Source: Desulfarculia bacterium (GTDB lineage Bacteria; Desulfobacterota; Desulfarculia; Adiutricales; JAGVGV01). From it: a stretch of 64,000 nt of DNA. The stretch is taken from assembly GCA_963662445.1 (NCBI GenBank), contig OY759590.1, forward strand, positions 2,560,249-2,624,248. The letters are read 5' to 3'. This document shows positions 4,156 through 32,266 of this stretch, piece by piece (the stretch's first letter is position 1; every line of letters starts with the position of its first letter). Under the pieces are notes generated by a model. It was not told the DNA's origin. It worked only from the letters and a program-made list of their open reading frames with translations, and did no database searches. A program made the position numbers and the translations under genes.

Positions 4156-4217
4156 TCAAGTGTGCAGCCGGAAGGCGGCCCGCGGCTCCGAGCCGCCTTG
4201 CCGGGCTGAGAGATAAT

Positions 4218-8636: not shown

Positions 8637-8644
8637 ATCAAATC

Positions 8645-10343: not shown

Positions 10344-10357
10344 GGTTAATATACTCT

Positions 10358-12480: not shown

Positions 12481-12630
12481 TCTTTGTGGCGCGCAGGCAA
12501 GGGGGCTTTTCAGGTCTGGCCAACTTCTGGAGTTTAGGGCAAAAAGGTCTTAACGTGATAGAATCAGGGAAACAATTCTGTCCCTCAAAACAAGGCAGGT
12601 AGGCCATTGCGCGGAGCAAGGTTAAAAAAA

Positions 12631-13770: not shown

Positions 13771-13874
13771 GAATTCATGACGGGTTCCATAGGTATTCTG
13801 TCTGTTGAATAATCACGGCTGTTGCGGTTCTACTGAAGTGACTGCCCGGATTAGACCGGTTAAGGATAATATTG

Positions 13875-15998: not shown

Positions 15999-16115
15999 GC
16001 AGGCTGGTCTGGCCGTCAGTCTAAGCAGGGCATTGCATGGGATTCTATTCATTAGGGGCTTGCTTCGGATACTCAAAACTGATATATCGTTCCCAGAGTT
16101 ACGGAGGCAGAAACG

Positions 16116-17303
16116 ATGGCTGATATATTGATATTGGGCGGAGATGGTTATCTGGGCTGGCCCACGGCCATGTATTTTTCCAGTCAAGGGCATAGCGTGA
16201 CCGTGGCCGATAACTATTTTCGGCGCAACGCCTGCACTGAGCTGGATGTCGGCATGCTCTACCAGGTGCCTACACTTGCCAACCGAGCGAGGCTCTGGTA
16301 CGAGTTGACCGGCCGGGAGATAAAGGTCGTCGTCGGCGATCTGAGCGATGCAGAAGTCATGCGTTCATTCTTCGACGGCAGGGTTAAGTATCAATGGGCT
16401 GTCGACTCAGCTTTCAAAGGCGCACCCGAGGCGGTAGTCCATTATGCCGAGCAGCCATCGGCACCGTACTCGCTTATAGATTACAAATACGCCAATTTCA
16501 CTCTGACCAACAACCTTCTGGTTACCAATAACCTCATGTTCGCGGTGCGTGATTTTTCCCGGGAAACTCACATTATCAAGCTGGGAACCATGGGGGAATA
16601 CGGGACGCCCAATATTGATATTGAAGAAGGCTGGTTAGAGATTGAGCATAAGGGCCGGAAAGGCAGATTTTTGTTTCCCAGGCAGGCAGGTTCGTTGTAC
16701 CATACCACAAAGGTCATGGATACCGACCTGCTGTGGTTTGGTGTGCGCATGTGGGACCTTAGGGTCACAGACCTCATGCAGGGCCCTGTCTACGGCCTGG
16801 AGACAGAAGAATCGGCCGCCGATCCTCGGTTGCGGACCATATTCAATTATGACGAAGTGTTCGGCACAGTGCTGAACAGGTTCATCACCCAGGCTGTGGT
16901 GGGATATCCTTTGACGGTCTATGGCCAAGGCGGCCAGACCAGGGGATACCTGAACATCAAGGACACATTGCAGTGTGTGGGCAAGTCTCTTGAGACGCCG
17001 GCCGGAAAAGGCGAGCTGCGGATATTCAATCAGATCATGGAAACATTCAGTGTTTCCGAGCTGGCTGAATTGACGAAGAAGGTCGGTGATGCTCTTGGGT
17101 TTGATGTGGAGATCAAAAGCATCGATAACCCGCGGAAGGAAGCGGAAGAGCATTATTACAATCCTACCTATCAGGGGCTGGTGGATATTGGGGTTGAGCC
17201 ACATTACCTGACCGAAGAGGTCATGAAAGGCATGTTCCGGATCGTGGCCGAACACCGGGACAGTATCAGGCGCGATGTGATTTTCAGAGGGATTAAGTGG
17301 TGA
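16116..17303 (+). CDS. sqdB: UDP-sulfoquinovose synthase
   Basis: Long identical strings to plant SQD1 / bacterial SqdB as recalled: ILGGDGY.GWPTA, KLGTMGEYGTPNIDIEEG, GGQTRGYL.I.DT.QCV, FNQ..E.FSV.ELA, NPR.EAEEHYYN, G.EPHYL. Confidence 0.9.
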   Translation: MADILILGGDGYLGWPTAMYFSSQGHSVTVADNYFRRNACTELDVGMLYQVPTLANRARLWYELTGREIKVVVGDLSDAEVMRSFFDGRVKYQWAVDSAFKGAPEAVVHYAEQPSAPYSLIDYKYANFTLTNNLLVTNNLMFAVRDFSRETHIIKLGTMGEYGTPNIDIEEGWLEIEHKGRKGRFLFPRQAGSLYHTTKVMDTDLLWFGVRMWDLRVTDLMQGPVYGLETEESAADPRLRTIFNYDEVFGTVLNRFITQAVVGYPLTVYGQGGQTRGYLNIKDTLQCVGKSLETPAGKGELRIFNQIMETFSVSELAELTKKVGDALGFDVEIKSIDNPRKEAEEHYYNPTYQGLVDIGVEPHYLTEEVMKGMFRIVAEHRDSIRRDVIFRGIKW

Positions 17304-17308
17304 AGGTA

Positions 17309-18007
17309 ATGGCCAATTTTATATCCCGATTATCTGCTTCATATAACTGGCTAAAACGAAAGAGAGTCCGAAGGCCATGGCCGGAAGGTGAGGCAGGATT
17401 AAAAAAACGTGACCATAGGCGAATGGTTGGGGCTCGATGGGATGAACTCGGGCCTTTACAGTTTAATTTCATGACTGAAGTGGCTGGATTAAAGCCGGAT
17501 GATATTTTTTTGGAGATATCCTGTGGATCATTCCGGGCAGGGCGCTTCTTTATACAATATCTTAATGAAGGTAATTACTTAGGTATTGATAAGCAAGAAG
17601 TTCTAGTGAGGGAAGGCAAGCAACATGAAATACCTGCCCATATATGGAACGATAAAAAACCAGAAATAGTTATATCCGGTGAGTTTGATTTTAATAAGTT
17701 TTCGAAAACACCTGGGCTATCATTGGAGCAATCTCTTTTCACACATCTTACACCAAGAGATATCATAAAATGTCTAAGAAAACTTTCTCAATATGTAAGT
17801 TCATGCCATCGTTTCTATGCTACATTCAATGAAACAGATACGCCGCCATATTATATATTACCATCACATTCTAGTCGTTTCGACTATTCTTTTAAGCAAA
17901 TTGCAACTTGGGGGAAACGTTATGGATGGGATTGTACTTACATTGGGAGCTGGGGGCATCCACTTGATCAGAAGATGATAATGTTTGAGAGAAAGGATGA
18001 GCATTGA
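17309..18007 (+). CDS. putative SAM-dependent methyltransferase-like protein
   Basis: FLEISCGSFRAGRFFIQYL..YLGIDK resembles motif I / post-I of class I methyltransferases. AT-rich. The start is 17309 ATG or 17297 GTG. Confidence 0.4.
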   Translation: MANFISRLSASYNWLKRKRVRRPWPEGEAGLKKRDHRRMVGARWDELGPLQFNFMTEVAGLKPDDIFLEISCGSFRAGRFFIQYLNEGNYLGIDKQEVLVREGKQHEIPAHIWNDKKPEIVISGEFDFNKFSKTPGLSLEQSLFTHLTPRDIIKCLRKLSQYVSSCHRFYATFNETDTPPYYILPSHSSRFDYSFKQIATWGKRYGWDCTYIGSWGHPLDQKMIMFERKDEH

Positions 18008-18296
18008 ATTATAAACAGGCAACCATGAATGAATGTTGTTAGATGACAAGGGGTCTTAATTTGACGATAATGGCATAACTTTGTGGACAAATAGTTGGTA
18101 GCCTGAAGATAGTTTACGTAGTGAAAAAATTTGAGATGTAAACATTTTTTAGCATAGAATCCTTAGGTGGTGGGTAATAATTAGATTACAATCATTTTTG
18201 CTTATAGTAGTATGAAGCAATTAATAATGTGTAAGTTGAGGGGTGTTGGTAATGACTTTGAAGAGAAATTTAATCGATGATGATAGTGATATTATA

Positions 18297-18380
18297 CCAT
18301 GTGGCCTGCACAGAGATTCACTTTTTGCTGATAGAAAAAGCCATCTTAAGAAAGCCGCCATACTGTCCAAACAATGTTGA
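18297..18380 (+). mobile_element. second short IS3-type transposase 3'-end scar
   Basis: CTTAAGAAAGCCGCCATACTGTCCAAACAATG (18344-18375) matches 12440-12471 at 30 of 32 positions. Weaker similarity extends upstream (TGGCCTGCACAGAGAT versus TGGGGCCTGTCTGAGAT). Confidence 0.5.
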
Positions 18381-18497
18381 CTACCTCTAATTTCTAATAC
18401 CCCATGGGCATTGATGGGAGTTGTTGAAATAGATGACAATTGTCGATAAGTTGTATAAAGTCGTAATTAGGGGTTTGAACGGGGTCTATTAGACGGC

Positions 18498-21400
18498 ATG
18501 AAAATACTTTTTATAAGTCCTCGGCCTTTCGGTCTGATGGGGACTCCCGGAACATATCTTCTTGTGGAAGCGTATGCGCAAAATGCTCATGTCTGTGTCA
18601 TTGCCAATAAGGACCATGACGATTCGTTCAGAATCGTGCATCCTCCATCCTCCCGTGTTGAATTGCATGAGATATCTTTTAGCAATGCTGAATATCTTCT
18701 CGACATACTGAGAATTGTCCAAATATTTAGACCTGATATCGTAACAATCGGGAGTCACCCTGGATGGACATTCATTCTTGATTACCTAAAAGCGCATTAT
18801 TCAGCAGCGAAGTATGTCTATGACATAAAATCTCCTCTTCTGGCTCCGGGCAATTCGAGGAGGAGCCTTGAAACTGCAAAAAGAGGTAGAATATCTGCGA
18901 AGAATGTTGATCTGGTCCTGACCCGTTGCCTCGAAGATGTGCAGACATGGATTCCCGAATGCTCAAAGCCTGTCCTGGTCTACCCTTTGGGAGTAAAACT
19001 GACGAATTATGAGCCTATAAAAATAGGTGAGGGTTTCTCCAGCTGCACGAGATTTGTTTATGTGGGAGCCATTGCTCCACTGAGGATGCTTGAAAAACTT
19101 CTTGAATTTATAGCCGCATTGCCTTGGAAGATCAGAAAGGTCGTCAGGTTTGATTTTTATGGATCGGGCCCTGCTGAATCAAGTTTTGTAAATACAATAG
19201 ATGAACTTCGCCTTAATAAGATTGTATCGTATAATGGTTGTGCCGATACAGTCCAACTGCCCAAATTACTGACAAATTATGAAGCTGGATTAGCTTGGGT
19301 GCCCCACGAACTATATGATACGGCTCCATCTTTGAAGATAGTTGAGTATACATCTGCAGGGCTATTACCGATTGCTATGGATACTACCGCGCACAAGCGT
19401 TTTGCGGATAATGGCTTCCATGTATCATTCTTCTCTGATACAGCCAATTCCTTTGCCTGTGCAATTGGAAAAGCCGTTATCGAAGGTTACAATGCAGAAA
19501 AAAGATCCGAAAATATGGATAGAATTAGGAAGTATGATTGGTCTAACATTGTAGAAAGCTATATATTTCCGGCTTTTGTTGATCTATTAGACACGAATGC
19601 GATGATGACAAGCCAAAGGGAAAATGAGCCGGTTGACAAGAGTCACCATGCTTTCACGTATAGCGATCAGAGTATTGTTGTTCGCAATAATTGGCAACAT
19701 GATTTGCACAATATGGAAATTGAGAAAAAGAGAATACTGTTTATTGGTCCCCCTGGATTTGCTGAAAAGATATGGGATACTAGGGCAAGATATATCATTC
19801 CAGATTTGTTTGATAGTATTCCTTCGAATTGGGATGTATATTTTCTTACTGGAGAAGTGCCGGAATATGCGTGGGACGCTATTAATTCCCTCATTGAAAA
19901 ATATAAAATTAGACACATTGAAATAGGGCCAAAACCTAAAAGAATTTCATTCGATGAATATTGGGATTCAGAAATTGTCAAATACGCTAAATTTGTTCGG
20001 CCGGACTTCATCTCGAACATATTTGGGGCATTAAGGGCAGGTAAAGCCATTGCCCTTGCAGCAGAGGACGTAGGGGCAAGAGCAATATTGCGTGTCCCTG
20101 GGGATGAAATATTGTCGAGGGTTAACATGGGCGTATATCAAGAGAAGTCCAATAAATACATTGTGGATATGGAGCGGCAGCAGATTGCTTATGATCTGTC
20201 CGACGCCATCATTGCAATGTCGCCGTGGGAAAGAGAGCGCATATGCGGATTTCTCGAAGAAGATAAACATGCCAAAGTTCATATCTGTATGAGAGGTGTT
20301 GATACAGATATTTTCAAACCAAATTACGCGAAGGAAAACAATACTAAACAAATAAAACGTTTTCTTTATCTTGGAAGAATGTCTAAGGAAAAAGGCTACG
20401 ATATAGTTGAGGAAGCAGCCAAGATATGTTGGGAGAAGGAAAAAGATATTGAATTTACATTTGCTGGTAACTTTGGAACGAGTAAAATAGCTAACAGAAA
20501 CTATATCGGTTGGGTGGAGAGCTCCTCACTACCAGATATCTTCAGAGGTCATGATGCGCTAATACTGGTGTCACGAACGGAAGGATTTCCTCAAGTCGTG
20601 GCGGAAGCTATGGCTAGTGGATTACCCTGTATATTGTCCAGGTCGCTATTTTCCAAGATATTTAGAAACAAGGAAGATGCTTTACTGACAGAGATGAATC
20701 CGCAGGCGGCGTCAGATGCTGTATTGGAGCTGTATAACGACGTTCAATTATCTCATATGCTGGCAAAAAGGAGCAGGTTGATAGCGACGACATATATGAA
20801 AAAGGAAATATGGAAAGAAGTATACCGCGATATAATATTGGGTAATAATCAATATTCAACGAGAAAAAGACAATCTTACTATATGACCAAGTGGCATGAT
20901 TTTGGAAATGAATCCGGAATTGAAGCTGCATTTAATTGTGAAAGAATAACTAATTGCCACGCAGATGTTGCGAGAGTTACCAATAGACAAAGAGTGAAAA
21001 GTGTCACCACGAGTATGCGAAGGCAAAATACTCTCTACTCTGTTGCTGAAAAAAAATTAAAGATGTTGATGATTAGTCCGAGACCATTCGGCCTAATGGG
21101 GACTCCAGGCACCTATGAGTTAGCTGAACGTCTATCTGACTATATGGATGTATGTGTAGTTTCAAATTCAAATAAAGTAAAGAATATAGAAATTGTTCAT
21201 TCGGCCTCAAATAACATCAGATTGTACGGAATTGATTTTGCGGATAAGACAATAGTTTTTGCTTTGATGAAGGAGATTCTTTCTCAATATAGGCCAGATA
21301 TTGTATATCTTCTCTGTGGCGCTGATTGGTTTTCGTTTTTGGATTATTGTAAAAAAGAAAGGCCTAGTAGTAAGTATGTATTGGACATCAAATCTCCATA

Positions 21401-24035
21401 TTTCCATTCCCAAAAGATAGAACGTCATGAGTCGCTTAAGAAAAATGGTGATTCAGAGTCAAACAAACTTGACTTGATATTGAGTTATTCCGAAGAGATA
21501 ATTGACTCATGGTTTAGTAAAAGGGATGTTAATAGCATAGTATATCGTCTTGGAATTGAGAAGGCAAACTATAGTCCTAAAAAAATAAATACAGCGACAA
21601 TTCCTTGCATGAAAATTGTATATATTGGGTCTATACACCCAAAAAGGAAAATGCATCGCCTTTTGAATTATATTGAGTCATTACCTTTACAGATAAGGGA
21701 AAAGGTGCGTTTTAGCTTTTTCGGAAGCGGCCCGGGAGTTGATGATCTCTGTAAAGACATTATTAAGAAAGGGCTAAATAGAAATGTCTCATATGAAGGA
21801 TGCCTGAATGGATTAGATCTGGCAAATAGATTGAGTGAATATGATGCAGGATTGGCATGGGTTCCACATGAAATATTCAACTATTCTCCATCTTTAAAGA
21901 TATTGGAATATATGGCAGCAGGTCTTTGTCCCATAGCGATGGATACAGTTGCCCATAAACGATTGGCGGAGCAAGGTTTTGAAATTAAATTTTTTACGGA
22001 TTCAGCAGAATCATTCGCCGCTACTATCGGTGAATTAGTTAAGGGTGGTTTTTTGAATGTTCAAAGGGAAAACAATCTGAAATTGATTGATAGGCATGAT
22101 TGGGACAATATTGTGAAAGAAGAAATATTGCCAGTATTGATGGGTGTGATGGGAAAGACGGAAAAGAATATAAGAAAAAAAGACGATAAGACTAAACAAA
22201 GTGATGTCAATATGCGAACAGAAGATAACTGGGGTTTTGCAAATAATATGAACAGAAAACATGAAATCGATATAGAAAAAACATATTTTTGGGACTTGTC
22301 ATATAATATTGAGAAACACAAAAGGATAACAACCGGAAAAACACGCATAGCCGGTATAGTTGGAGAGAGACTTTTTAGCAGCATAAGATACGATGCGGAA
22401 TTACTGGTATTAACACCAAATAATTGGGAACAGATACTTAAATATGGAAAACCACGCTTTATATTGATGGAATCGACATGGTCTACGGTAACTGGTCATT
22501 GGTATATGGCACAGAGTATAAAGAATAGTGAACAAGAAGAACTATTAGAAATATTGGATCAGGCAAAGAAGCGTGGAATACCCAGCGTCTATTGGATAAC
22601 ATCTGATCACTCAATGCACGATCATTTTAGCGATTTTGCTAAGCATTTTGATTTTGTCTATTGCGCAGACATGAAAGAAATAGGTTTATTTAAAAGGGAT
22701 GGTATAAACGCGGCGATATTACTTCCTGCGGTTCAACCGGTTATTTTTAATCCCATACATAATTTCAATCAAAATAAAATAAGGAAATCAGGAATCCTTT
22801 ATGATGGCTGGGTCGATCTTTTTAGGTACCCGGAACTTGGTAATATATTGAGTAAAGTTAAAAAAGATAATCTAAATATATATCAATCTGACTTGATGAT
22901 GTACAGAACACAAGTTAAGCACACAGCTAACAATTTGGCTCAATCAATTAGAGGTACAATAACAAAAAGTGCTTTGCCATATCTTTTAAGAGACGCAGAG
23001 ATGTATATATCATTTGAGAAAACAGCCTTATCAAAGACACAAAAATTATGGTCCTTATTGGAGGCTGCTGCGTCTAGACTACCCTTAGCTCATTTAGGCA
23101 AAATAGAAGTTGATGATCCTCGCAATAAACTTGTAAAACAATTTGATAATGAATTTGAATTTATTCAATTTGTAAATCAGGAGAGTGAGTTCAGTTTTGA
23201 AATAGAAAAAAATAGGCATCTGGCCTGGAGAGAAACATTTTACAAGCATATCATGGCCAAACGTATCCAGCAGATATGTAATGACATAGGTATTGAAGAT
23301 GAATGGCAGGAATTTCCTAAGGCTACTTTAGTTACCGGAACAATGAGACGAACATTATTGCCTAAGTGTTTTGAACAGTATGAGAATCAAGTATACCCTA
23401 ATAAAGAGTTGATTCTTATCTATAATGGCAATGTTAGTGATGTCGAAGAATATAAGAAACTCTATTCTGATAGAGATGATATCATAATTGAGGCTATTTC
23501 AACTGATTTTTCCGTTGGAACAGTGTTAAATTATGGAATAATCAGGGCAAGGGGAGACTATTTTTTTCGTATTGATGACGATGACATATATGGTCCCAAT
23601 TATATTTTGGATTCATTGTTATATCTAAGGGGAACCGACGCTGATATATTTGGTAAAAGAGCCTCATATTTTAGCTTTGAAGATGATCCTGCAGTGTATC
23701 TAAGAAATAAGTTGTTACCAATAATACAAAAATTTCCATCAAAAAGACTTCATGAGAGTCATGATACGCTTATAAGTGGCTGTAGTTTTGGAGGAAAAAC
23801 TGAGTATTTAAAAAGACATAGATATCCTGACGGTATACATGCTTCAGCTGATACTGCAATCATTGATTCACTTAAGAGGCAAAAACAAGATGTTGAATGC
23901 CTAATTATGGATAGCTTAAACTTGGTTGTAAAAAGAAATAGCCGGCTTAATAGTCATACATGGAGAATGGACAATAATAAAATAAAGGACGAGGCAATAA
24001 AGGCAACTGAAAATTGCTCTGATGTCATATTTTAA
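18498..24035 (+). CDS. 1845-aa five-module glycosyltransferase: GT4-like A1, canonical GT4, GT4-like A2, CgeB/DUF3880-like, GT2
   Basis: Single uninterrupted ORF. A1 spans aa 1-365 and A2 spans aa 856-1215; they share MISPRPFGLMGTPGTY, RPDIV, KYV.DIKSP, GSGP, AGLAWVPHE, SPSLKI.EY..AGL.PIAMDT.AHKR. The GT4 module (aa 411-781) has LGRMSKEKGYD..SRTEGFPQVVAEAMASGLP. The C-terminal GT2 has YPNKELILIYNG..FFRIDDDDIYGPNY. Confidence 0.85.
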   Translation: MKILFISPRPFGLMGTPGTYLLVEAYAQNAHVCVIANKDHDDSFRIVHPPSSRVELHEISFSNAEYLLDILRIVQIFRPDIVTIGSHPGWTFILDYLKAHYSAAKYVYDIKSPLLAPGNSRRSLETAKRGRISAKNVDLVLTRCLEDVQTWIPECSKPVLVYPLGVKLTNYEPIKIGEGFSSCTRFVYVGAIAPLRMLEKLLEFIAALPWKIRKVVRFDFYGSGPAESSFVNTIDELRLNKIVSYNGCADTVQLPKLLTNYEAGLAWVPHELYDTAPSLKIVEYTSAGLLPIAMDTTAHKRFADNGFHVSFFSDTANSFACAIGKAVIEGYNAEKRSENMDRIRKYDWSNIVESYIFPAFVDLLDTNAMMTSQRENEPVDKSHHAFTYSDQSIVVRNNWQHDLHNMEIEKKRILFIGPPGFAEKIWDTRARYIIPDLFDSIPSNWDVYFLTGEVPEYAWDAINSLIEKYKIRHIEIGPKPKRISFDEYWDSEIVKYAKFVRPDFISNIFGALRAGKAIALAAEDVGARAILRVPGDEILSRVNMGVYQEKSNKYIVDMERQQIAYDLSDAIIAMSPWERERICGFLEEDKHAKVHICMRGVDTDIFKPNYAKENNTKQIKRFLYLGRMSKEKGYDIVEEAAKICWEKEKDIEFTFAGNFGTSKIANRNYIGWVESSSLPDIFRGHDALILVSRTEGFPQVVAEAMASGLPCILSRSLFSKIFRNKEDALLTEMNPQAASDAVLELYNDVQLSHMLAKRSRLIATTYMKKEIWKEVYRDIILGNNQYSTRKRQSYYMTKWHDFGNESGIEAAFNCERITNCHADVARVTNRQRVKSVTTSMRRQNTLYSVAEKKLKMLMISPRPFGLMGTPGTYELAERLSDYMDVCVVSNSNKVKNIEIVHSASNNIRLYGIDFADKTIVFALMKEILSQYRPDIVYLLCGADWFSFLDYCKKERPSSKYVLDIKSPYFHSQKIERHESLKKNGDSESNKLDLILSYSEEIIDSWFSKRDVNSIVYRLGIEKANYSPKKINTATIPCMKIVYIGSIHPKRKMHRLLNYIESLPLQIREKVRFSFFGSGPGVDDLCKDIIKKGLNRNVSYEGCLNGLDLANRLSEYDAGLAWVPHEIFNYSPSLKILEYMAAGLCPIAMDTVAHKRLAEQGFEIKFFTDSAESFAATIGELVKGGFLNVQRENNLKLIDRHDWDNIVKEEILPVLMGVMGKTEKNIRKKDDKTKQSDVNMRTEDNWGFANNMNRKHEIDIEKTYFWDLSYNIEKHKRITTGKTRIAGIVGERLFSSIRYDAELLVLTPNNWEQILKYGKPRFILMESTWSTVTGHWYMAQSIKNSEQEELLEILDQAKKRGIPSVYWITSDHSMHDHFSDFAKHFDFVYCADMKEIGLFKRDGINAAILLPAVQPVIFNPIHNFNQNKIRKSGILYDGWVDLFRYPELGNILSKVKKDNLNIYQSDLMMYRTQVKHTANNLAQSIRGTITKSALPYLLRDAEMYISFEKTALSKTQKLWSLLEAAASRLPLAHLGKIEVDDPRNKLVKQFDNEFEFIQFVNQESEFSFEIEKNRHLAWRETFYKHIMAKRIQQICNDIGIEDEWQEFPKATLVTGTMRRTLLPKCFEQYENQVYPNKELILIYNGNVSDVEEYKKLYSDRDDIIIEAISTDFSVGTVLNYGIIRARGDYFFRIDDDDIYGPNYILDSLLYLRGTDADIFGKRASYFSFEDDPAVYLRNKLLPIIQKFPSKRLHESHDTLISGCSFGGKTEYLKRHRYPDGIHASADTAIIDSLKRQKQDVECLIMDSLNLVVKRNSRLNSHTWRMDNNKIKDEAIKATENCSDVIF

Positions 24036-24099
24036 TGAAAGATAGACAAAGACAAGGCCTTTAGCATAGCAAATTCAATAATGCAAATTGGTGAGGAGT

Positions 24100-25116
24100 A
24101 TGTTAGAATATTGTAATATATTGATTACAGGTGGCTGCGGATTTATTGGGACATCAATAGTAGATAGAATTAATAGACTGTACAGTGGAAAGAAGGTATT
24201 AATTCTAGACAATTTTGTTACTGGAACTCCAAAAGATCTGGCTGAGGTGGCAAGTTTTAAAACGGCTTCAAGCGGTGATTGGCCAACGAAAGAAGGAATA
24301 ACACTGGTCAAAGGAGATATACGTGATAAGGATTGTGTTATGCAGTGTTGTAAGGGGGTCGACTGTATTATACATCTAGCGGCGAATACTGGAGTTGGCC
24401 CATCAGTTCAAAATCCATCGTTGGACATGGAATGCAATGTTGTCGGAACATTTAATTTATTGGAGGCGGCTAGATTAAATAATGTAAAAAAGTTCATATT
24501 TGCTTCTTCGGGAGCACCTGCCGGGGAAGTTGAACCACCTATACACGAAGAGTTACCTCCACATCCTGTATCACCCTATGGAGCGAGTAAATTGGCTGGA
24601 GAAGGATACTGTTCAGCTTACTACAGAACTTTTGGGTTGCGAACAATTTGTTTAAGATTCGGCAACGTATATGGTCCCAGGTCAAAGAAGAAGTCAAGCG
24701 TGGTGGCAAAATTCATCAGGCAGGCCTTGGCTGGAGAAGAGTGCGTTATATTTGGCGATGGAACACAAACCAGGGACTTTATTTATATTGATGATTTAGT
24801 AGGTGCTGTCTTGCTGGCAATGCACAAGGATGTGGGGGGGGAGACTTTTCAAATTGCCACAGGCCTGGAATGTACGGTAAGTGAGATTGCAGAATTAATT
24901 CAAAAAAAGATGCATAAAAACGGAATAGATATGAAAATTGTTTATGATAATCCGCGAATGGGAGACGTAAGACGTAACTTTGCAGATACAACAAAAGCCA
25001 AAATTGGTTTAGGCTGGACTGCTGCTGTGCCACTGGAAGAGGGATTAGAGAAAACACTATCATACTTTTTAGATATTGCTGTTAGTGACCAGAACAAGGA
25101 GATGACCGATGACTGA
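24100..25116 (+). CDS. NAD-dependent sugar-nucleotide epimerase/dehydratase (extended SDR)
   Basis: ILITGGCGFIGTSIV and the YGASKLAGE catalytic YxxxK. Substrate is not assignable. The start is ambiguous (24088 TTG or 24100 ATG). Confidence 0.85.
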   Translation: MLEYCNILITGGCGFIGTSIVDRINRLYSGKKVLILDNFVTGTPKDLAEVASFKTASSGDWPTKEGITLVKGDIRDKDCVMQCCKGVDCIIHLAANTGVGPSVQNPSLDMECNVVGTFNLLEAARLNNVKKFIFASSGAPAGEVEPPIHEELPPHPVSPYGASKLAGEGYCSAYYRTFGLRTICLRFGNVYGPRSKKKSSVVAKFIRQALAGEECVIFGDGTQTRDFIYIDDLVGAVLLAMHKDVGGETFQIATGLECTVSEIAELIQKKMHKNGIDMKIVYDNPRMGDVRRNFADTTKAKIGLGWTAAVPLEEGLEKTLSYFLDIAVSDQNKEMTDD

Positions 25117-26410
25117 TAACCAGACTAAAGATGTAGTTGTGGTATTAAGCGCCGGCAGGTCTGGTACGTCTTTACTTATGAATGTCATGAACAGGTTGGG
25201 GATGGAGCTTTCCGAGGAGATGATTCCTGGAAGGTACGGAAATCCGGATGGTTATTTTGAAGATTCTGAAATAGTTCAGATACACCAGAATTTAATTAAA
25301 GATATTTCCGCAAAGGCTAATCTGCCACTCCCAGATAACTGGCTATTGAATGAAAAGGTAAAAAGTGCTGTACCCAAACTTAAGACGATATTGAAAGATC
25401 GTCTTCAAAAATGTAACGGAACATGGGGGTTTAAAGATCCTCGTACTTCGGTGTTGTTGCCTTTATGGCTAAGAGTTTTCAATTCCGCAGTAGTAAATCC
25501 GATTTTTGTCCTGGCCATAAGACATCCAGCGGCAATGGTAGTTTCAATGCGCCGCATCGTAGACAATGACGATACGGTAACAGAACTACAATGGCTTCAC
25601 CGCACATGTGAAGCTCTGTATAACACTTCCGGCGATTGCTACATCGTTCATTATGAAGACTGGTTTAGAAGAGGGGAAGAAATAGCTGGTGAGCTACTTA
25701 ATTACACCGGTCTGGAAAATAGTTTTGGGGAAAAAGACATTAGCGATGCGCTGCGGGGACTGATAAAAGACAATTTGAACCGTTCAGTCTATGAAGATTA
25801 TGACATACAGAACAAGTATGTAGCTATGTTATATGAGAGCCTACAAAATTGTCGGGGCAAGGATTTTGATCGTTCGAAGTTGATGGAGACCGTGAAAGAA
25901 TGTCGGAATGCTATTCACGGTTTTAAGGGGTGGTACCAATTGGCTCTGGAGGCCGGGAGCGATAAGAACCAGGAAAACGTTAATAAGATAAAGAAACTAG
26001 AAAATGAGCTAAAGGACAAAGAAGAGAAGCAATCCGCCAGAATAGAAGAACTTGAGATTGATGTTGCTAAAAGTGTATCAAATTGCAATAGTTATTTACA
26101 TAAGATAAAGGATCTGGAGGATGAAGTCTGCCATTTGAGAATAAGAGTTACAGCCCTGGCTTTGGCCTCTACTAACAACGCCTCTGAAAGTGGTAGACAG
26201 TCCAAAGGTATTGTAAGCGGCTTAGACTATGAATTGAACAGGTGTCGTTGCGAGTTGCGGGCTATGAGATCTTCAGTCACCTATAGAACAGGCTATTTCG
26301 TTGTAAAAGCGTTCTCTAAGCCGGGGAAAAACACAATTTTGCTTCCTTACCGGCTGATCCGGATTTTTCTAAAACACCTGGCCACACGAAAACGGAAAGT
26401 AATAACTTGA
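25109..26410 (+). CDS. sulfotransferase-family protein with C-terminal coiled coil and basic amphipathic tail
   Basis: 5'-PSB-like VVLSAGRSGTSLLMNVM, 3'-PB-like GFKDPRTS and AIRHPAAMVVSM. Residues about 285-350 show heptad-like K/E/L-rich sequence (NKIKKLENELKDKEEKQSARIEELEIDVAK..IKDLEDEVCHLRIRV). The last ~40 aa are basic and hydrophobic. Confidence 0.72.
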   Translation: MTDNQTKDVVVVLSAGRSGTSLLMNVMNRLGMELSEEMIPGRYGNPDGYFEDSEIVQIHQNLIKDISAKANLPLPDNWLLNEKVKSAVPKLKTILKDRLQKCNGTWGFKDPRTSVLLPLWLRVFNSAVVNPIFVLAIRHPAAMVVSMRRIVDNDDTVTELQWLHRTCEALYNTSGDCYIVHYEDWFRRGEEIAGELLNYTGLENSFGEKDISDALRGLIKDNLNRSVYEDYDIQNKYVAMLYESLQNCRGKDFDRSKLMETVKECRNAIHGFKGWYQLALEAGSDKNQENVNKIKKLENELKDKEEKQSARIEELEIDVAKSVSNCNSYLHKIKDLEDEVCHLRIRVTALALASTNNASESGRQSKGIVSGLDYELNRCRCELRAMRSSVTYRTGYFVVKAFSKPGKNTILLPYRLIRIFLKHLATRKRKVIT

Positions 26411-26468
26411 TATCTATGGGATATGAAGGTCAAAAAGTATAGTTAGAAAAATTATAAAGGCTATCATA

Positions 26469-27251
26469 ATGCTACAACTCACACGCAATTTGCGCGATTA
26501 CCGCAACGCTTTGGTGATTCAGTTCTGGGTCAACATCAGAACAACTGTTGCTGCGACAAGACTCGGTGTCCTATGGTGGATTCTTGATCCGCTCATGCTC
26601 ATGATGATTTATTATTTTGTTATAAAGATTGTTTTTAACCGCGGCGGGCCGGGTTACCATTTTTATGCACTTTGTGGAATTGTGACATGGCAATCTTTTT
26701 CGCGATCTCTGACTCAGTGTACAAACGCACTGATTGGCAATTCTGCGTTAATTAAACAAGCTGTTCTGCCGATAGATCTTTATGTTTTGTTGCCCCCTAT
26801 TGTGCAGGCATTTTTTTATTTAATAGGTCTGGCTATAATAGCTATCTGGAACAATAATGTAGTGGGTTGGTATACTCCAACTGTTCTGGTATTGCTGATT
26901 CCGATGGTCCTTCTGCCATATGCTTTGGGGCTTTTTCTTGCAATACTGAGAACTAGATCTCCAGATTTGGGAAAATTTGTTCCTTATATATTAAGATTCG
27001 GGTTCTATTTCAGTCCTGTTTTGTACGGTCCAGAAAGAATTTATGATTTACACATACCGCAGCTATTTAAAACTTTATATTCTTTGAACCCTATGGTTCA
27101 CATCATAACTGCTGTGCGAGAAGTCTTGTTCGAGGGGCGTATGTTTGATTTGCGTCCGATATTATTGGTATCGATTGCCGCTATCTTATTAACACAGGCT
27201 GGACTTGTATTTTTCCGGCGATTTGCACCGTCAATTCCTAAGTATTTGTAA
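26469..27251 (+). CDS. wzm: ABC-2 type polysaccharide export permease
   Basis: 260 aa, six hydrophobic segments, ABC-2 (Wzm/TagG/KpsM-like) layout, immediately upstream of a Wzt-type ATPase. Confidence 0.85.
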   Translation: MLQLTRNLRDYRNALVIQFWVNIRTTVAATRLGVLWWILDPLMLMMIYYFVIKIVFNRGGPGYHFYALCGIVTWQSFSRSLTQCTNALIGNSALIKQAVLPIDLYVLLPPIVQAFFYLIGLAIIAIWNNNVVGWYTPTVLVLLIPMVLLPYALGLFLAILRTRSPDLGKFVPYILRFGFYFSPVLYGPERIYDLHIPQLFKTLYSLNPMVHIITAVREVLFEGRMFDLRPILLVSIAAILLTQAGLVFFRRFAPSIPKYL

Positions 27252-27317
27252 AATAGATAAAGTGAATATAAAATCGTCTCAAAACAATAAAGTTGACGGT
27301 TTAGCCGTGAGCGTAAA

Positions 27318-29321
27318 ATGAGTTTAATAATCGCCAGCATATTCTCCCGCAAACAGCAAGGTGCGGGGCTTATGGTTTACGATTTGACAAAATCGGAAGC
27401 CGCATATGTCCAGTTGCTCAATTTTGAGTCAATTCCCACGCGGCTTCATCAGCTACGAGGAATAAGCGTTCTGGCGGATCAGCTCTACGCCGTCGTTCCT
27501 GGCGCGTTGTTGATATTTCGTATTCAGACCAAAGAGAATGGTCCGCTTTTTATTCTCGAAAAGACTGTTGTACGGCCGGATTGGGTTTTGGGAAAGGAAG
27601 CCCAGGGCGACCTGCATGCGGTCTATGCTTCAACTAGACGCAATCGTCTTTTTGTGTCTTTCAACAGCCAGGCTGCCGTGGAAATCCTAGACCTGGATGG
27701 GAATTTTCTGGAAAGGCAATATCTTTGGGAAATCGCGCCAGATATATTCCCTTTGCCGACAAAGATTGCGGGGAATAGTTTTCAATTCGGCATAATCAGG
27801 CATATTTTCGAGGCGCCCGACGGGGAAGTCATGCTGACAACAGCCCTGTTGAACGGTACTCTGGAAGGCGGAATTATAAGTTACGATGACGGCCGGATGG
27901 TTCTGGGGCCGACACCGCAGCCTCCTCACGGGGGCTTGTTTTTTCAGAACAGACTTGCTTATTGCGACATACGCCAAGCGGAAGTCCCGGTTTACAAGTG
28001 GTCTTCCGGGATGAGTATTACAGCAAACGAACCAAGCAGTGTTTTCAGACCAGAGATTACCGAAAAGCGCTGGCAGGACAGCGAGCAGGCCGTTAGAGGT
28101 ATGACCTGCATTGACGAACATCTGCTATGCGGCGTTTTCTATCTTGGCAAACCTAAGAAAAAACAGATTCCCCCAAGAATGGTCGAGTTCGACCTGGATG
28201 CGGGCAAACAGATCAGGGAACACTTCCTGCCCTCTTTCAAGGGGCTGGAAGAGCCGATGATCTATGCGCTGTTGCCTGCTTCGCCGGAGATTGAAGCTGC
28301 CGCGGCAATGTATGCGGAGCCGAGATATTTCCGTGGAGATGAGCCGTTTGCACCCGAGTTGCTAAAACAGCCACAAGAAATGCCTGAGCAGTCTCCGGAA
28401 AAAGGTGCTGTTACTCCTGTGGAAGCCCAATCAGGCGTAAAGGAAAACACTAAATCAGAAGAGACAGAATCTGAAATCCAGGCTCCATCTGATTTGCATT
28501 GCGAAGCCCCGCAGTTACCGGTTATTGAAAGAAAGCCAACAGTTGTACTTGATGGAGTGAGCGTGAAGTTTGTCCGCTCGGGAAAGCTGCTGGCGAAATT
28601 CAGTAATCAGCTCCGAAAGAAGAGAATCCATTGGGCGTTGCGCGGCGTCTCCTTGTCAGTCTTCGAAGGAGAGGTTCTGGGTATCATCGGGCGTAATGGA
28701 TCTGGAAAGTCCACTATGTCGATGGTCTGCGCCGGGGTTTACCAACCAGATGAGGGAAAAATCACGGTTCAGGGGCGGGTTCAGCTTCTGGCCTTGGGTG
28801 TTGGTTTTAAAAATGAACTCAGCGGTCGGGAGAATGTCGTCATCAGCGGGAGCTTGATGGGGTTGAGCCGACGTGAGATATTGGCCAAAATGGACGAAGT
28901 TGAAGAATTTGCGGAACTGGGGGATTTTATGGATGAGCCGGTCCGCACTTATTCCAGCGGCATGCGCAGCCGTCTGGGATTCGCTGTGGCCACGGCGGTT
29001 CAGCCGGATATTCTCATTCTGGACGAGATCATGGCGACAGGCGACAGGGCCTTTCAGGACAAGGCCATGAATCGTATGAAGGAGATGCGCAGCCTTGCCA
29101 GAAGCGTGATTATCGTTTCCCATGCGCCGGGCCAGTTGAGAAAGCTGTGCGACAAGGTTCTATGGCTGGAGAAGGGGAGAACCGTCATGCTTGGGGAAAC
29201 CAAGGAGGTTCTCAACGCCTACGACAATTTCTGCCAGAATCCCCAGAAATGGCTCATGAGGCATCAGCAGGAAGTCGATATCCCGCCTGATGCAGGTGAG
29301 GGTTGTTCACAGACGGAGTAA
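27318..29321 (+). CDS. wzt: polysaccharide export ATP-binding protein with ~400-aa N-terminal extra domain
   Basis: The C-terminal NBD spans about aa 407-667: Walker A GRNGSGKST, signature YSSGMRSRLGF, Walker B ILILDE, H-loop VSHA (Wzt/TagH type). Residues 1-340 are a non-NBD, beta-rich domain. Residues 345-405 are a P/E/Q/S-rich linker. Confidence 0.85.
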   Translation: MSLIIASIFSRKQQGAGLMVYDLTKSEAAYVQLLNFESIPTRLHQLRGISVLADQLYAVVPGALLIFRIQTKENGPLFILEKTVVRPDWVLGKEAQGDLHAVYASTRRNRLFVSFNSQAAVEILDLDGNFLERQYLWEIAPDIFPLPTKIAGNSFQFGIIRHIFEAPDGEVMLTTALLNGTLEGGIISYDDGRMVLGPTPQPPHGGLFFQNRLAYCDIRQAEVPVYKWSSGMSITANEPSSVFRPEITEKRWQDSEQAVRGMTCIDEHLLCGVFYLGKPKKKQIPPRMVEFDLDAGKQIREHFLPSFKGLEEPMIYALLPASPEIEAAAAMYAEPRYFRGDEPFAPELLKQPQEMPEQSPEKGAVTPVEAQSGVKENTKSEETESEIQAPSDLHCEAPQLPVIERKPTVVLDGVSVKFVRSGKLLAKFSNQLRKKRIHWALRGVSLSVFEGEVLGIIGRNGSGKSTMSMVCAGVYQPDEGKITVQGRVQLLALGVGFKNELSGRENVVISGSLMGLSRREILAKMDEVEEFAELGDFMDEPVRTYSSGMRSRLGFAVATAVQPDILILDEIMATGDRAFQDKAMNRMKEMRSLARSVIIVSHAPGQLRKLCDKVLWLEKGRTVMLGETKEVLNAYDNFCQNPQKWLMRHQQEVDIPPDAGEGCSQTE

Positions 29322-29329
29322 CATTCAGG

Positions 29330-32266
29330 ATGAATTCTTTTTTGGAGATATATACCGAGGCTATCAAGCTGTTTCATAGAAGGCGCTTCGCCGAAGCTGA
29401 AAAGGCGATTCTGGCGTACAGGGGTGAAGCTGACTATTTTGCTTTGGAACATGTGGATAAACGTTCCGAGAAAAGACCTCTGGCCTCGGTTGTCATAGTT
29501 TCGAGAAAGGGCGAAGAAGGCCTGCTGCACTGTCTCGACTCACTGGAAAGAGAAAGCGAAACAGCATTTGAAACCATTGTGGTTAACAATGGCGAAAATG
29601 ACAGTGTTCTGGATAGATTGCTTTTGAGGGATATCTGCCTTGTGCAGGGTAATGCCGTTTTTACTCCTTCTGAAGGCCGGAACATCGGAGCGGCTTATGC
29701 CAGGTCGGAATTATTGATTTTTCTGGATGATGACGCCTTGGTTGGCCAGGATTTCGTAAAAAACGCCATTGCCGCTTTTAGGGCATATCCCTTTCTGGGC
29801 ATACGCGGCCGCGTCCTTCCCAAAACCAGCGAAGGCAACAATGCGGTTGCCGGCCACTATGACATCGGGGAACTCCCTATCCCCGCCGTGTTGGACACCG
29901 AAGGCAATATGGCCGTGCCGAAGGATGTTTATGAAGCCGTGGGCGGAATGAATCCTTTGATGTTCGGTTCGGAGGGGCTTGAACTTTCCCATCGGCTGTT
30001 GAAGGAATTTCCGGGCAGAGACATCTACTATTGGCCCTCCATGACCATACTTCATGATTTTGCCCAGGGCGGGCGGCTGGAAGCAAAAATGAAACGGTAC
30101 ATCTTGGCTACGGAATACTTCAATGCCATGATGCCCGACGCCTTGAAGATGAGAAAGCAGTACCTGGCCTGGATTCTTTCGAGACCGGGAACAGATATGA
30201 AGACTGACCGCATTATCGGGGAATCTGCGGGCTCCGAAGACATGGAAAAGGCGGAACTGCTGTTTCGGATTTCCCGCCTGGAAAAAGAGTTGGAGATTAC
30301 CACCAATTCATTTGCCTTGCGTCTGGGCCGTTTGTTGGGCCGGGCCTACTCTTCGCCATGGCGGGAGGGGCCGCTTCTGCCCCTGAAAATGTTTCGTCTC
30401 GCCAGGGAATGGCGGAGTGGAGGGAAGAACCTGTTCCGCGTGAACAATTCTCCCCGAACGGCCATTATGTCCATTGTGGGATCGGAGCTTCGCAATGAAA
30501 AAAATTATGCCACCCCGGGCAAGACGGAACATGTCTATGGTATTTTCCCAGCCTTCCGTCCATTGCGAAAAGGAAAACTGTCTTCTTCGCTCCGCATAGC
30601 CTGTATACTTGGCGAACATACATTCCGTTGTCTTGAACCTGACGCACACCTCTTTCCTCTTTCGGAAAACGGCTGGAAAGAAGAGATCGAGCATGCGGCA
30701 CCTCAGATGCTGCTGGTCGAATCTCTGTGGCAGGCCTCCGACGGCGGCTGGAAAAACGTGCTGGCTACAACGGATGATTGGCCGACCTCGTTAAAGGATA
30801 TTCTGGCTTACTGCAACGAGCGATCTATTCCGGCCGTTTTCTGGAATACCGAGGATGTTGCCCATTATCCATTTTTCAGGAATGCGGCCAAATACTTTGA
30901 GCATATATTCGCCATGGATGCCCGGGTGGTGAGTCTGTACAAGCAGGAGACAAACAAACCTGTTCATCACCTGCCGCCGGCGGTGCAACCGGTCTATCAC
31001 AATCCTGTTCGCTCGGCCGAAAACGAGCCTGAAGTGAAGGGGTTCACGTATCTGTTTGATGGATGGGCTGATCTGATTGAGAAGCCGGAAGATTTTTCTT
31101 GTCTGGATCAGCTCTGTGAACGCGGTCTGCACATTGTGGAATCAAGGTACCGGTTCAGAGCGAATAAACTGGACGAGAACCCTGCATATAAAAAATCCAT
31201 CATGGGGTGCCTTGACTACGAACAGTTGTTAACCGCCTGGAGATATTACCAGGTGGCTGTCATGTCGCCGACATCGCTGTCCACGCCTCTGGTCAGATTC
31301 AAACGCGCCATCGAGGCCGTGGCCTGCGGGACTCCCGTGCTGCACTTCGGCAAGACGGACTGGGAATGGCCCGCCCATGGAATTGTTCAGACCGAGAACG
31401 CCGCTGATTTCAAAGGCAAAGCGCGAGATCTGATCGAAGATAAGGCTCTCAATGGCCGTCTGTCTCATCTGGGCCGCCGGGAATTGTACTTGTCCCATAC
31501 CTATGCTCACCGTCTGAAGCATATATCTTCCGTGTTGGGCCTGCAAAACGACTGGGTTGAATATCCGAAGGCCTGCGTGATAACCCCCACCAAGAGGCCG
31601 GACCTTATCCCCGGCTGCATAGAAAAGTTCGAAGCTCAGGTTTATCCCAACAAGGAATTGATTATCATCGTCAACACCACGGATGCCGATTCGGACTCAA
31701 TCGGAAAAACCCTGGCCGGCCGCGACAATATCAAGTTTTTTCAGCTCCATCAGGAGAAAAATATAGGGGCCTGTCTGAACTACGGCATTTCACAGGCCAC
31801 CGGCGCCTACTGGTTCAAGATGGATGATGATGATTTTTATGGCAGGAACTATCTGCTGGATACGATGATTGCCCTAAGAGGCTTTGATGATTGCGTTTTC
31901 GGAAAGCCGCCCGGGTTTGTCTACTTTGAGGAGAATGACAAGATATTCAACAGGGGCGAAGGATTTGACGGAAAACACATCCAGGGCGACAAGCATGCGC
32001 CGTACATAAGCGGGGCGACACTTGGCGGAAAAATAGGGCTCGATATTGATTTTTCCGAGGAGCATCGTGCCTGCGTGGACAGCTTCTTTCTGGAGACCAG
32101 CAGCAGAAGGCGGGGCCTGCCCACCTATGCTTCGGATATTTTCAATTTCGTGGCCTACCGTTCCCGGAGTGCCGCCGACCATACCTGGAAAGTCGATCCC
32201 AGGGCAATAAAGAGACGTTCCGTGCCTTTTGCGGATGGACTTGATTTTACAAACATTATGATCTGA
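29330..32266 (+). CDS. three-module glycosyltransferase: GT2, CgeB/DUF3880-like, GT2
   Basis: The N-terminal GT2 has ASVVIVSRKG..ETIVVNNGEND..FLDDDA. The middle and C-terminal modules are colinear with aa 1282-1845 of the 18498-24035 product (RIA.I.GE, P..L.ES.W, IP.V.W.T.D, LP.AVQPV..NP; YPNKELI.I.N, LNYGI, DDDD.YG.NY). The ATG at 29330 was chosen. Confidence 0.8.
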   Translation: MNSFLEIYTEAIKLFHRRRFAEAEKAILAYRGEADYFALEHVDKRSEKRPLASVVIVSRKGEEGLLHCLDSLERESETAFETIVVNNGENDSVLDRLLLRDICLVQGNAVFTPSEGRNIGAAYARSELLIFLDDDALVGQDFVKNAIAAFRAYPFLGIRGRVLPKTSEGNNAVAGHYDIGELPIPAVLDTEGNMAVPKDVYEAVGGMNPLMFGSEGLELSHRLLKEFPGRDIYYWPSMTILHDFAQGGRLEAKMKRYILATEYFNAMMPDALKMRKQYLAWILSRPGTDMKTDRIIGESAGSEDMEKAELLFRISRLEKELEITTNSFALRLGRLLGRAYSSPWREGPLLPLKMFRLAREWRSGGKNLFRVNNSPRTAIMSIVGSELRNEKNYATPGKTEHVYGIFPAFRPLRKGKLSSSLRIACILGEHTFRCLEPDAHLFPLSENGWKEEIEHAAPQMLLVESLWQASDGGWKNVLATTDDWPTSLKDILAYCNERSIPAVFWNTEDVAHYPFFRNAAKYFEHIFAMDARVVSLYKQETNKPVHHLPPAVQPVYHNPVRSAENEPEVKGFTYLFDGWADLIEKPEDFSCLDQLCERGLHIVESRYRFRANKLDENPAYKKSIMGCLDYEQLLTAWRYYQVAVMSPTSLSTPLVRFKRAIEAVACGTPVLHFGKTDWEWPAHGIVQTENAADFKGKARDLIEDKALNGRLSHLGRRELYLSHTYAHRLKHISSVLGLQNDWVEYPKACVITPTKRPDLIPGCIEKFEAQVYPNKELIIIVNTTDADSDSIGKTLAGRDNIKFFQLHQEKNIGACLNYGISQATGAYWFKMDDDDFYGRNYLLDTMIALRGFDDCVFGKPPGFVYFEENDKIFNRGEGFDGKHIQGDKHAPYISGATLGGKIGLDIDFSEEHRACVDSFFLETSSRRRGLPTYASDIFNFVAYRSRSAADHTWKVDPRAIKRRSVPFADGLDFTNIMI

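Follow-up and report, generated by a model that had tools for sequence, protein, structure and literature searches.

How a single bacterial polypeptide has come to unite five glycosyltransferase (GT) modules, and what kind of product such a protein would make, are the questions raised by a gene in the genome of a Desulfarculia bacterium (assembly GCA_963662445.1). The gene is located within a 64,000-nucleotide stretch of contig OY759590.1 (positions 2,560,249 to 2,624,248), which is referred to as the window throughout. It encodes a protein of 1845 residues (aa) in which a canonical GT4 module is flanked by two divergent GT4-like modules, termed A1 and A2, and followed by a CgeB/DUF3880-type domain, termed M4, and a GT2 module. 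The reading that we favor, and that we consider more likely than not, assigns this protein as a component of a cytoplasmic polymerase of the WbdA/WbbB type, which would participate in the synthesis of a sulfated or sulfonated glycan and whose five modules are probably all active. It draws on the open reading frame (ORF) itself, the folds and motifs of its modules, the conserved gene order and the repeated occurrence of its modules elsewhere, in fused as well as in separate form, all of which are observed directly.

Translation of the ORF reveals 1845 codons with no internal stop. It lies in a stretch of 34-43% G+C within a background of 52-63%, and the AT-rich nature of the surrounding DNA excludes a chance origin of an open frame of 5.5 kb. 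The exact protein is present in NCBI and the European Nucleotide Archive, where neighboring products are on record with identical starts, and the genome consists of a single contig of 4.83 Mb. A hydropathy scan predicts no membrane-spanning or hydrophobic segment, as expected for a soluble protein. A sequence-only reading of the same stretch had described five modules in one uninterrupted frame, among them a GT4-like A1, a central GT4 with an EX7E motif and a terminal GT2, and had placed the identity of A2 to A1 at about 40%. This architecture was borne out by Pfam, by sequence motifs and, for A1, by structure prediction, with module boundaries that differ by only few residues. The proposed CgeB/DUF3880 module also holds at the family level, based on Pfam matches of its homologues and a GT-B model, although its suggested start at 22339 is one base out of frame.

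The Pfam search of the entire protein has identified three C-terminal domains of the GT-B type and one GT2 domain. In a pairwise comparison, A2 is 42% identical to A1 across 365 aa (E 3e-107). A model of A1 calculated with AlphaFold2 from an alignment of 23 A modules displays a complete GT-B fold at a predicted local distance difference test (pLDDT) score of 92, and Foldseek relates it to the retaining GT4 enzymes BshA, PimA, WlaC and a mycobacterial mannosyltransferase at template modeling (TM) scores of 0.72-0.76. On the sequence level, a profile of A modules matches GtfA, TarM, MshA and PimA. Both modules contain only the second glutamate of the EX7E motif (E283 in A1 and E1137 in A2), with the first one missing, and GT4 remains their closest family by nearest structures and fold. 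Each of them retains 43 of the 45 columns that are conserved at a level of at least 85% among A modules, including the invariant residues G18, R196, G222, G224, W267-V-P, K280, E283 and N339, and it is this conservation that leads us to regard A1 and A2 as paralogues that are probably both active.

The relationship between the two modules had previously been described as an internal duplication. However, in a neighbor-joining tree of 36 A modules, which in the absence of bootstrap support serves as a rough guide, A1 clusters with the first-position A modules of five other proteins (P0002, P0003, P0005, P0010 and P0014), to which it is 52-62% identical, and A2 forms a separate branch that shares at most about 43% identity with any other A module. 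Since A1 is closer to the first-position modules of other proteins than A2 is to any module, the duplication is, as judged from these comparisons, an old one. A recent tandem duplication of A within this protein is ruled out by the tree and the identities.

The central module can be assigned to CAZy family GT4, with PF13439 and PF00534 as its GT-B domains and a complete EX7E motif (E695-E703, nucleotides (nt) 20580-20606). It is 45-49% identical to the GT4 modules of the related proteins P0012-P0019. The last module belongs to CAZy family GT2, as its PF00535 score of 37-44 bits exceeds the gathering score of 23.3 and as it contains a DXD-type motif in form of four consecutive aspartates (DDDD, aa 1693-1696, nt 23574-23585). 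Profile matches of this module in the PDB include 6p61, 3bcv, 5hea, PmHS2, SpsA and K4CP.

The region preceding GT2 is illustrated in an AlphaFold2 model of aa 1221-1845 (pLDDT 80, predicted TM score 0.82), where M4 is defined as a GT-B domain composed of two Rossmann folds. Foldseek has found a match of the M4-GT2 model to BshA and alignments over its whole length to EXT1/2. Among the homologues of M4, 5 of 11 members match PF13524, P0165 matches DUF3880 (PF12996) and a plasmid-borne homologue carries a DUF3880 annotation. The module retains the invariant residues E105, D165, D171, D216, E302 and H312 (alignment numbering, with E302 corresponding to about aa 1522 of the protein), so that the M4-GT2 region as a whole combines invariant acidic and histidine residues with the DXD motif. 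Because M4 is directly followed by GT2 in every member of the family, we regard the pair as a single two-domain cassette. Its wide distribution is reflected in a profile search of 1.84 billion representative sequences, which has yielded 1094 M4-GT2 clusters at E<=1e-30. Among the best 150 of these clusters, stand-alone proteins with a length of about 580-620 aa form the majority, with about 29 members longer than 900 aa and only two longer than 1500 aa. The cassette of the 1845-aa protein is 40-61% identical to those of its relatives, and the window contains a second one, encoded by the C-terminal 560 residues of a 987-aa ORF (31% identity, E 2e-88). A distant cassette (25% identity) is found in a 920-aa glycosyltransferase on a conjugative Citrobacter freundii plasmid (L087, NZ_CP054296.1, 10948-13710), where it resides in a kps-like capsule locus adjoining Tn4401. 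Large glycosyltransferases act as polymerases in capsule loci of the kps type, and the presence of the distant cassette in such a locus is consistent with a polymerase role.

A search of protein sequences has identified 19 relatives that are assembled from the same module types in differing orders. The sequence A-GT4-A-M4-GT2 of the 1845-aa protein is accompanied by A-A-A-M4-GT2 in P0002 (1760 aa) and P0004 (1755 aa), A-A-M4-GT2-GT4 in P0003 (1742 aa), A-M4-GT2-GT4 in P0005, A-A-M4-GT2 in P0007-P0009 and the same arrangement preceded by 490 residues of no known type in P0006 (1869 aa), GT4-A-A in P0012, P0013, P0015 and P0016, and A-GT4 followed by about 300 aa in P0017-P0019. Within this family, A modules occur without exception in fusion with M4-GT2 or GT4 or next to them, and the junction types A to GT4, GT4 to A and A to M4 of the 1845-aa protein have all been observed in independent proteins. 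A chain of five modules, which the sequence-only reading had called exceptional, is thus rare but recurrent as judged by the sequences at hand, since the metagenomic proteins P0002, P0003 and P0004 also contain five and share the same gene neighborhood. The description as an assembly line has fared no better: P0003 has the same module composition in a rearranged order, and the order of modules is thus probably not collinear with the order of reactions, as it would be in an assembly line of the polyketide type.

The relatives also provide insight into the origin of the protein. Sneathiella chinensis (L008) has two separate A genes in succession downstream of a gene with a terminal GT4 module, with gaps of 8 and 14 nt, and in a metagenome-assembled genome (MAG) of Chromatiales (L005), A and M4-GT2 are encoded by separate genes. 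In the protein described here, the junction between GT4 and A2 contains a run of eight adenines (A8), the longest homopolymer of the ORF. A hypothetical run of seven would result in the frame GAA AAA AAT TAA, terminating in AEKN and a stop, followed by AG and the ATG at 21063, and thus in two ORFs coding for an A1-GT4 protein of 853 aa and an A2-M4-GT2 protein of 990 aa, and in case of nine adenines the upstream ORF would end at codon 860. The unfused adjacent genes in relatives and this arrangement of A8, TAA and ATG together make the emergence of the protein by an in-frame fusion of adjacent module genes, as already suspected from the sequence, well supported at the level of sequence comparison, with the last step probably being a one-base change in the adenine tract that joined an A1-GT4 gene and an A2-M4-GT2 gene. 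The former gene start that had been proposed at A2 can be retained on the same grounds, whereas the Met-Leu-Met at its beginning is by itself weak evidence, as these residues align with Ile3 and Phe5 of A1, which occupy positions of a hydrophobic strand.

The same tract is the sole place where an assembly error could have created the fusion. It is thus conceivable that two real genes, encoding 853 and 990 aa, are present and that the single ORF reflects a homopolymer error or one state of a slippage-prone tract, an alternative to which we assign only a small chance. The coincidence of the longest homopolymer with the exact module junction, where the loss of one base would generate a TAA stop with the ATG of A2 two nucleotides further on, speaks in its favor, as does the contiguity of the 4.83-Mb assembly, which suggests the use of long reads. 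A second assembly carrying the same gene was not found and a search of metagenomes of the Joint Genome Institute (JGI) with the junction sequence did not return a match. Yet runs of eight bases are also present inside intact genes, such as the eight guanines at 24834-24841 of the epimerase/dehydratase gene, whose product aligns with its family over its full length, and no Shine-Dalgarno-like sequence precedes the ATG at 21063. Moreover, five to six independent proteins (P0012-P0016, P0020) carry a fusion of GT4 to A, and single ORFs of five modules occupy the same position of the cluster in three independent metagenome assemblies.

If the single chain is accepted, its gene neighborhood offers a view on its function. 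Downstream of the ORF, genes follow on the same strand with short gaps, with wzm and wzt at a distance of 2.4 kb, in line with the ABC-transporter-dependent setting that had been anticipated, and the linkage to these genes is also found in L004, L005, L009 and L084. In this pathway, soluble glycosyltransferases assemble the complete chain on the cytoplasmic side of the membrane, with undecaprenyl diphosphate as its carrier. Neither a Wzx flippase nor a Wzy polymerase was detected by Pfam in the cluster, although two polytopic ORFs (8985-10343 and 10316-11893) are unassigned. A homologue of UDP-sulfoquinovose synthase is encoded 1.2 kb upstream and is syntenic in L084, L004, L009, L010 and L005. 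The JGI contig L084 shares the order of UDP-sulfoquinovose synthase, five-module protein, short-chain dehydrogenase/reductase (SDR), sulfotransferase, Wzm, Wzt and M4-GT2 protein, with identities to the window of 74% for the synthase and 55% for both SDR and Wzm. Parts of this order recur in L085 and L086, and a Desulfosarcina MAG (L004) displays the same frame with two stand-alone M4-GT2 genes in place of the large gene. Of the 10 genome loci that contain a complete cassette, 9 have a sulfotransferase gene in its vicinity, and fusions of sulfotransferase domains are found with M4-GT2 in P0136 and P0039 and with GT4 in L005, which by strong guilt-by-association links the cassette to sulfation.

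We thus envisage that the 1845-aa protein would work on an acceptor linked to undecaprenyl, on the inner side of the membrane, with a catalytic set of presumably three retaining GT-B modules of the GT4 type, one CgeB-type GT-B module and one inverting GT2 module. The two-site M4-GT2 cassette would most likely constitute the core polymerising unit, with A1, GT4 and A2 adding further linkages in form of extra backbone residues, branches or an adaptor. The 987-aa protein with its three GT modules is a likely partner, and together they would assemble a polysaccharide backbone, with the finished chain being exported by Wzm/Wzt. Given the adjoining SQD1-like gene, one of the GT-B modules is likely to use UDP-sulfoquinovose as its donor. 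Clusters in L004, L009 and L010 combine a sulfoquinovose synthase with M4-GT2 only and are devoid of A modules, and M4 would for that reason be the likelier sulfoquinovose transferase, provided that the sugar is incorporated at all. The sulfotransferase would add sulfate to this polysaccharide, at positions along its length or in form of a terminal cap. With no coiled coil, membrane segment or tail motif of its own, the 1845-aa protein would depend on partner proteins for its recruitment to the membrane. The sequence-only reading had attributed a complex repeat unit to this protein alone, which is at odds with the three additional modules of its 987-aa neighbor, including the second M4-GT2 cassette. 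With five plus three modules, the cluster contains up to eight GT sites, and these could account for a complex repeat, for two successive polymers or for a repeat plus adaptor and branches.

Coordinates of the five-module gene, its parts and its neighbors in the window.
Feature	Position (nt)	Strand	Remarks
UDP-sulfoquinovose synthase (SQD1/SqdB) homologue	16116..17303	+	PDB 1qrr E 2.5e-115, full length; NF041015 E 1.6e-121
236-aa ORF	17297-18007	+	no family match
Five-module GT gene	18498..24035	+	complete ATG-initiated ORF, 1845 aa plus stop
Module A1, aa 1-365	18498..19592	+	divergent GT4-like GT-B; PF00534 (Glycos_transf_1) at aa 186-334
Linker 1, aa 366-410 (45 residues)	19593..19727	+	unconserved among homologues
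GT4 module, aa 411-781	19728..20840	+	PF13439 (Glyco_transf_4) and PF00534 (Glycos_transf_1), E about 1e-19
Linker 2, aa 782-855 (74 residues)	20841..21062	+	unconserved; A8 tract at its end
A8 homopolymer at GT4/A2 junction	21049..21056	+	longest homopolymer in ORF
Module A2, aa 856-1220	21063..22157	+	second GT4-like GT-B; PF13692 and PF00534
Linker 3, aa 1221-1280 (60 residues)	22158..22337	+	unconserved; low AlphaFold2 confidence for first ~44 residues (aa 1221-1264)
Module M4, aa ~1281-1600	22338..23297	+	CgeB/DUF3880-type GT-B domain; AlphaFold2 model, Pfam matches of homologues
GT2 (GT-A) module, aa 1601-1845	23298..24032	+	PF00535 at aa 1619-1772
SDR nucleotide-sugar epimerase/dehydratase	24088..25116	+	next to sulfotransferase in related loci too
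Sulfotransferase	25109..26410	+	Sulfotransfer_3 just under cutoff; GRSGTS and KDPR motifs
Wzm (ABC-2 permease)	26469..27251	+	
Wzt ATPase with ~400-aa N-terminal domain	27318..29321	+	
987-aa three-module GT (GT2, short helical region, M4-GT2)	29303..32266	+	probable start ATG 29330

The proposed role finds its closest parallels in systems where polysaccharides are exported by ABC transporters. In the established paradigm, each linkage is assigned to one GT module, with WbdA containing two to three modules (PMC11231755), and homopolymers or repeats of disaccharides have been regarded as the typical products of the pathway (PMC4483657). Like WbdA of E. coli O8/O9a and K. pneumoniae O3/O5, the 1845-aa protein is a soluble chain with at least two GT modules, encoded on the same strand of a cluster that includes wzm and wzt. 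It differs in its five modules of three types (GT4-like, CgeB-like and GT2), compared to the two to three GT4 modules of WbdA, and its sequence relationship to WbdA and WbbB is at the GT4/GT2 family level only. The fusion of several catalytic modules in proteins that synthesize an ABC-exported O-polysaccharide is also found in WbbB (K. pneumoniae O12/Raoultella terrigena) and ORF6 of K. pneumoniae O7, where the polymerising modules share the chain with the terminator (PMC11231755), and the distribution of modules over proteins is known to differ between serotypes (PMC11231755; PMC4483657). In WbbB and ORF6, however, a terminator and a long coiled coil accompany two polymerising modules, whereas the 1845-aa protein contains neither a coiled coil nor a terminator domain or a membrane-binding motif. 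A second group of related architectures comprises the chondroitin polymerase K4CP, the heparosan synthase PmHS2 and the exostosins EXT1/EXT2, which like M4-GT2 contain a fixed pair of GT sites, and the GT2 half of the cassette finds matches in GT-A domains of both K4CP and PmHS2. K4CP differs by its two GT-A domains. The order of GT-B followed by GT-A is shared with EXT1/2 (Foldseek match 7sck_B from the structure of the EXT1/EXT2 complex, 591 aligned columns, E 4.5e-10), although at a TM score of 0.25 and 10-12% identity the likeness is restricted to fold and architecture. A membership in the exostosin family (GT47-GT64) is thus ruled out, also in light of the GT-A half scoring as GT2, and although the products of eukaryotic exostosins are sulfated, a glycosaminoglycan product is not indicated here. 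CgeB, a spore maturation glycosyltransferase of B. subtilis composed of DUF3880 and Glyco_trans_1_2, resembles M4 in its GT-B fold and in the PF13524 and PF12996 matches of M4 homologues, but it lacks the C-terminal GT2 that is always fused to M4. Finally, SQD2/SqdX are retaining GT-B enzymes of the GT4 type that use the UDP-sulfoquinovose provided by SQD1/SqdB, for which the SQD1 homologue in the cluster is a potential source, although their product is a glycolipid (sulfoquinovosyl diacylglycerol) and not a polymer.

Several observations weigh against the assignment as part of a polymerase whose glycan is sulfated or sulfonated. The gene for sulfoquinovose synthase is missing from the 10-kb flanks of L001-L003, L007 and L008, and sulfoquinovose is thus no constant feature of the family. 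An initiating phosphoglycosyltransferase, an O-antigen ligase and an outer-membrane export gene were not identified in the window, so that the glycan may be an O-antigen, a capsule or belong to another class. The fused state is based on one assembly and its A8 tract. The M4 module of the 1845-aa protein itself does not reach the threshold of any Pfam family, and a characterized member of the A or M4-GT2 families was not found in the literature. Finally, the activity of the modules is what we infer from their conservation, and their donors, the role as polymerase, the product and the order of action are derived in a similar manner from sequence and context.

These points leave room for different functions. 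Instead of acting as a polymerase, the protein could make a defined oligosaccharide in one pass, for instance an adaptor or primer region, a set of branches or a protein-linked glycan, with the repeat units being polymerised by the M4-GT2 cassette of its 987-aa neighbor, which is of the stand-alone type. The clusters of L004, L009 and L010, which rely on M4-GT2 alone without A or GT4 modules, are in accordance with this possibility and suggest that A modules are accessory to a conserved core, and adaptor glycosyltransferases interact with polymerases in known systems (PMC11231755). We nevertheless consider it unlikely, as the 1845-aa protein contains a cassette of its own that is 40-61% identical to those of its relatives and as A modules are always found fused or adjacent to M4-GT2 or GT4. 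A different concern is the activity of individual modules: one of the A copies or M4, or several of them, could be catalytically dead scaffolds, and the product would in this case contain fewer than five types of linkages. Such pseudo-GT domains are known in multi-domain glycosyltransferases, and the missing Pfam match of M4 and the absent first glutamate of the EX7E motif in the A modules would be compatible with a loss of function. Still, with nearly all conserved columns and every invariant residue present in both A1 and A2, and with the acidic and histidine positions of M4 equally preserved, dead modules appear improbable, and we continue to favor an active component of a polymerase.

If this is the case, the termination of the chain and its recognition by the transporter might involve two neighboring proteins with unusual features. 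The sulfotransferase, for which no sequence match was found in the PDB, consists of a catalytic head, a helical spacer of 78 aa that is free of Pro and Gly and rich in E, K, Q and L, and a C-terminal tail (SVTYRTGYFVVKAFSKPGKNTILLPYRL). Among homologues, the spacer ranges from 50 to 108 aa or more, and 9 of 11 contain the tail motif [ST]x[ST][YF][RQ]xG...PGxNT...P, of which there is no copy in the 1845-aa protein. A crude heptad score of the tails is not above that of shuffled sequences, and the idea of a coiled coil thus relates to composition and layout. This layout resembles WbdD, a separate terminator with helical spacer and a C-terminal membrane-binding tail (PMC11231755), and by analogy suggests that a sulfate cap might be combined with a ruler, although a decorating role would fit equally well. 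WbdD carries methyltransferase and kinase activities in place of the candidate sulfotransferase terminator of this cluster, and its recruitment of WbdA to the membrane is analogous to the partner interaction that we propose for the 1845-aa protein. In the 987-aa protein, the N-terminal GT2 and the C-terminal M4-GT2 are connected by a short helical region, which contains a motif resembling this tail (NSFALRLGRLLGRAYSSPWREGPLLPLKMF). A composition filter did not detect coiled coils in the 1845-aa protein, the 987-aa protein or Wzt, and a long coiled coil as in WbbB is thus ruled out for the 987-aa protein. In Wzt, the N-terminal domain of about 400 aa, with no sequence match in Pfam or the PDB, is conserved in L004, L005, L009 and L084 and separated from the ATPase by an acidic Pro-rich linker, with domain and linker together at 27318-28580. 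The domain is located where a cap-binding module would be sought and constitutes a candidate for this function, although the cap-binding modules of known Wzt proteins are C-terminal. The Wzt described here does not contain a C-terminal carbohydrate-binding module.

Combined, these features would amount to a widespread, undescribed ABC-transporter-dependent system, a comprehensive view that we put forward tentatively and whose probability as a whole we judge to be low. As parts of this joint proposal, M4-GT2 would be a two-site polymerase of exostosin layout that generates a backbone containing sulfoquinovose, and the sulfotransferase, on its helical stalk of variable length, would cap the chain and set its length, following the model of WbdD and its methyl-phosphate. 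The novel N-terminal domain of Wzt would then read the sulfate cap, and glycan diversity would arise by the fusion and shuffling of A, GT4 and M4-GT2 units, with up to five modules in one chain.

Irrespective of this view, a family of shuffled multi-module glycosyltransferases that is recurrent has remained undescribed, as a literature search did not find a paper on this type of cluster or on a five-module glycosyltransferase, with one relevant survey being outside its coverage. Its interest is related more to the module family and the context of sulfur chemistry than to the size of the protein. The chains of five modules in the protein described here and in three relatives point to products beyond simple repeats, and the reshuffled relatives provide a natural experiment to relate module order to product structure. 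The conserved link of the cluster to a synthase of the SQD1 type and to sulfotransferases is suggestive of bacterial surface polysaccharides that are sulfonated or sulfated. Sulfoquinovose has been described in lipids and in N-glycans of archaea, and its presence in a bacterial polysaccharide would be unusual. With more than 1000 clusters, the M4-GT2 cassette offers a concrete starting point for enzymology as well as for the bacterial production of sulfated glycans.

The composition of the DNA and further genes of the window add to the description of the locus. The five-module gene is part of an island of low G+C at 8000-28000 (34-43% with a 52% patch at 12-14 kb, compared to a background of 52-63%), and the related contigs L084-L086 likewise contain 38-44% G+C, which suggests that the cluster was probably acquired horizontally. 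The contrast between the gene of the 987-aa protein (52%) and that of the 1845-aa protein (34-39%) characterizes the cluster as a mosaic. A contig from Logan (L083, SRR21539855, 1-6955) encodes Wzt and Wzm proteins that are 92% and 86% identical to those of the window, with a different M4-GT2 gene of 648 aa following wzt in place of the 987-aa gene, and this suggests a serotype-like exchange of the GT genes downstream of wzt. The AT-rich gap of 490 bp ahead of the five-module gene (18008-18497) may hold the promoter of an operon extending from this gene to the export genes; a scan for promoter and terminator consensus sequences found no enrichment over shuffled sequences, and the window contains no matches to tRNAs or Rfam families. 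Upstream on the same strand, the regions 2231-7147 and 12607-13770 encode rmlA, rmlB, WbqC, a methyltransferase, a PglD-like acetyltransferase and a WecE-like transaminase, which constitute a pathway to an N-acylated dTDP-4-amino-4,6-dideoxyhexose. Also on this strand are genes for a polyprenyl-phosphate GT2 resembling ArnC/PgfS (4850-5869), a small EamA-like protein (8645-9019), the two polytopic proteins (8985-11893) and a YfhO-like protein (13872-15998), a set that probably represents a three-component periplasmic glycan modification system.

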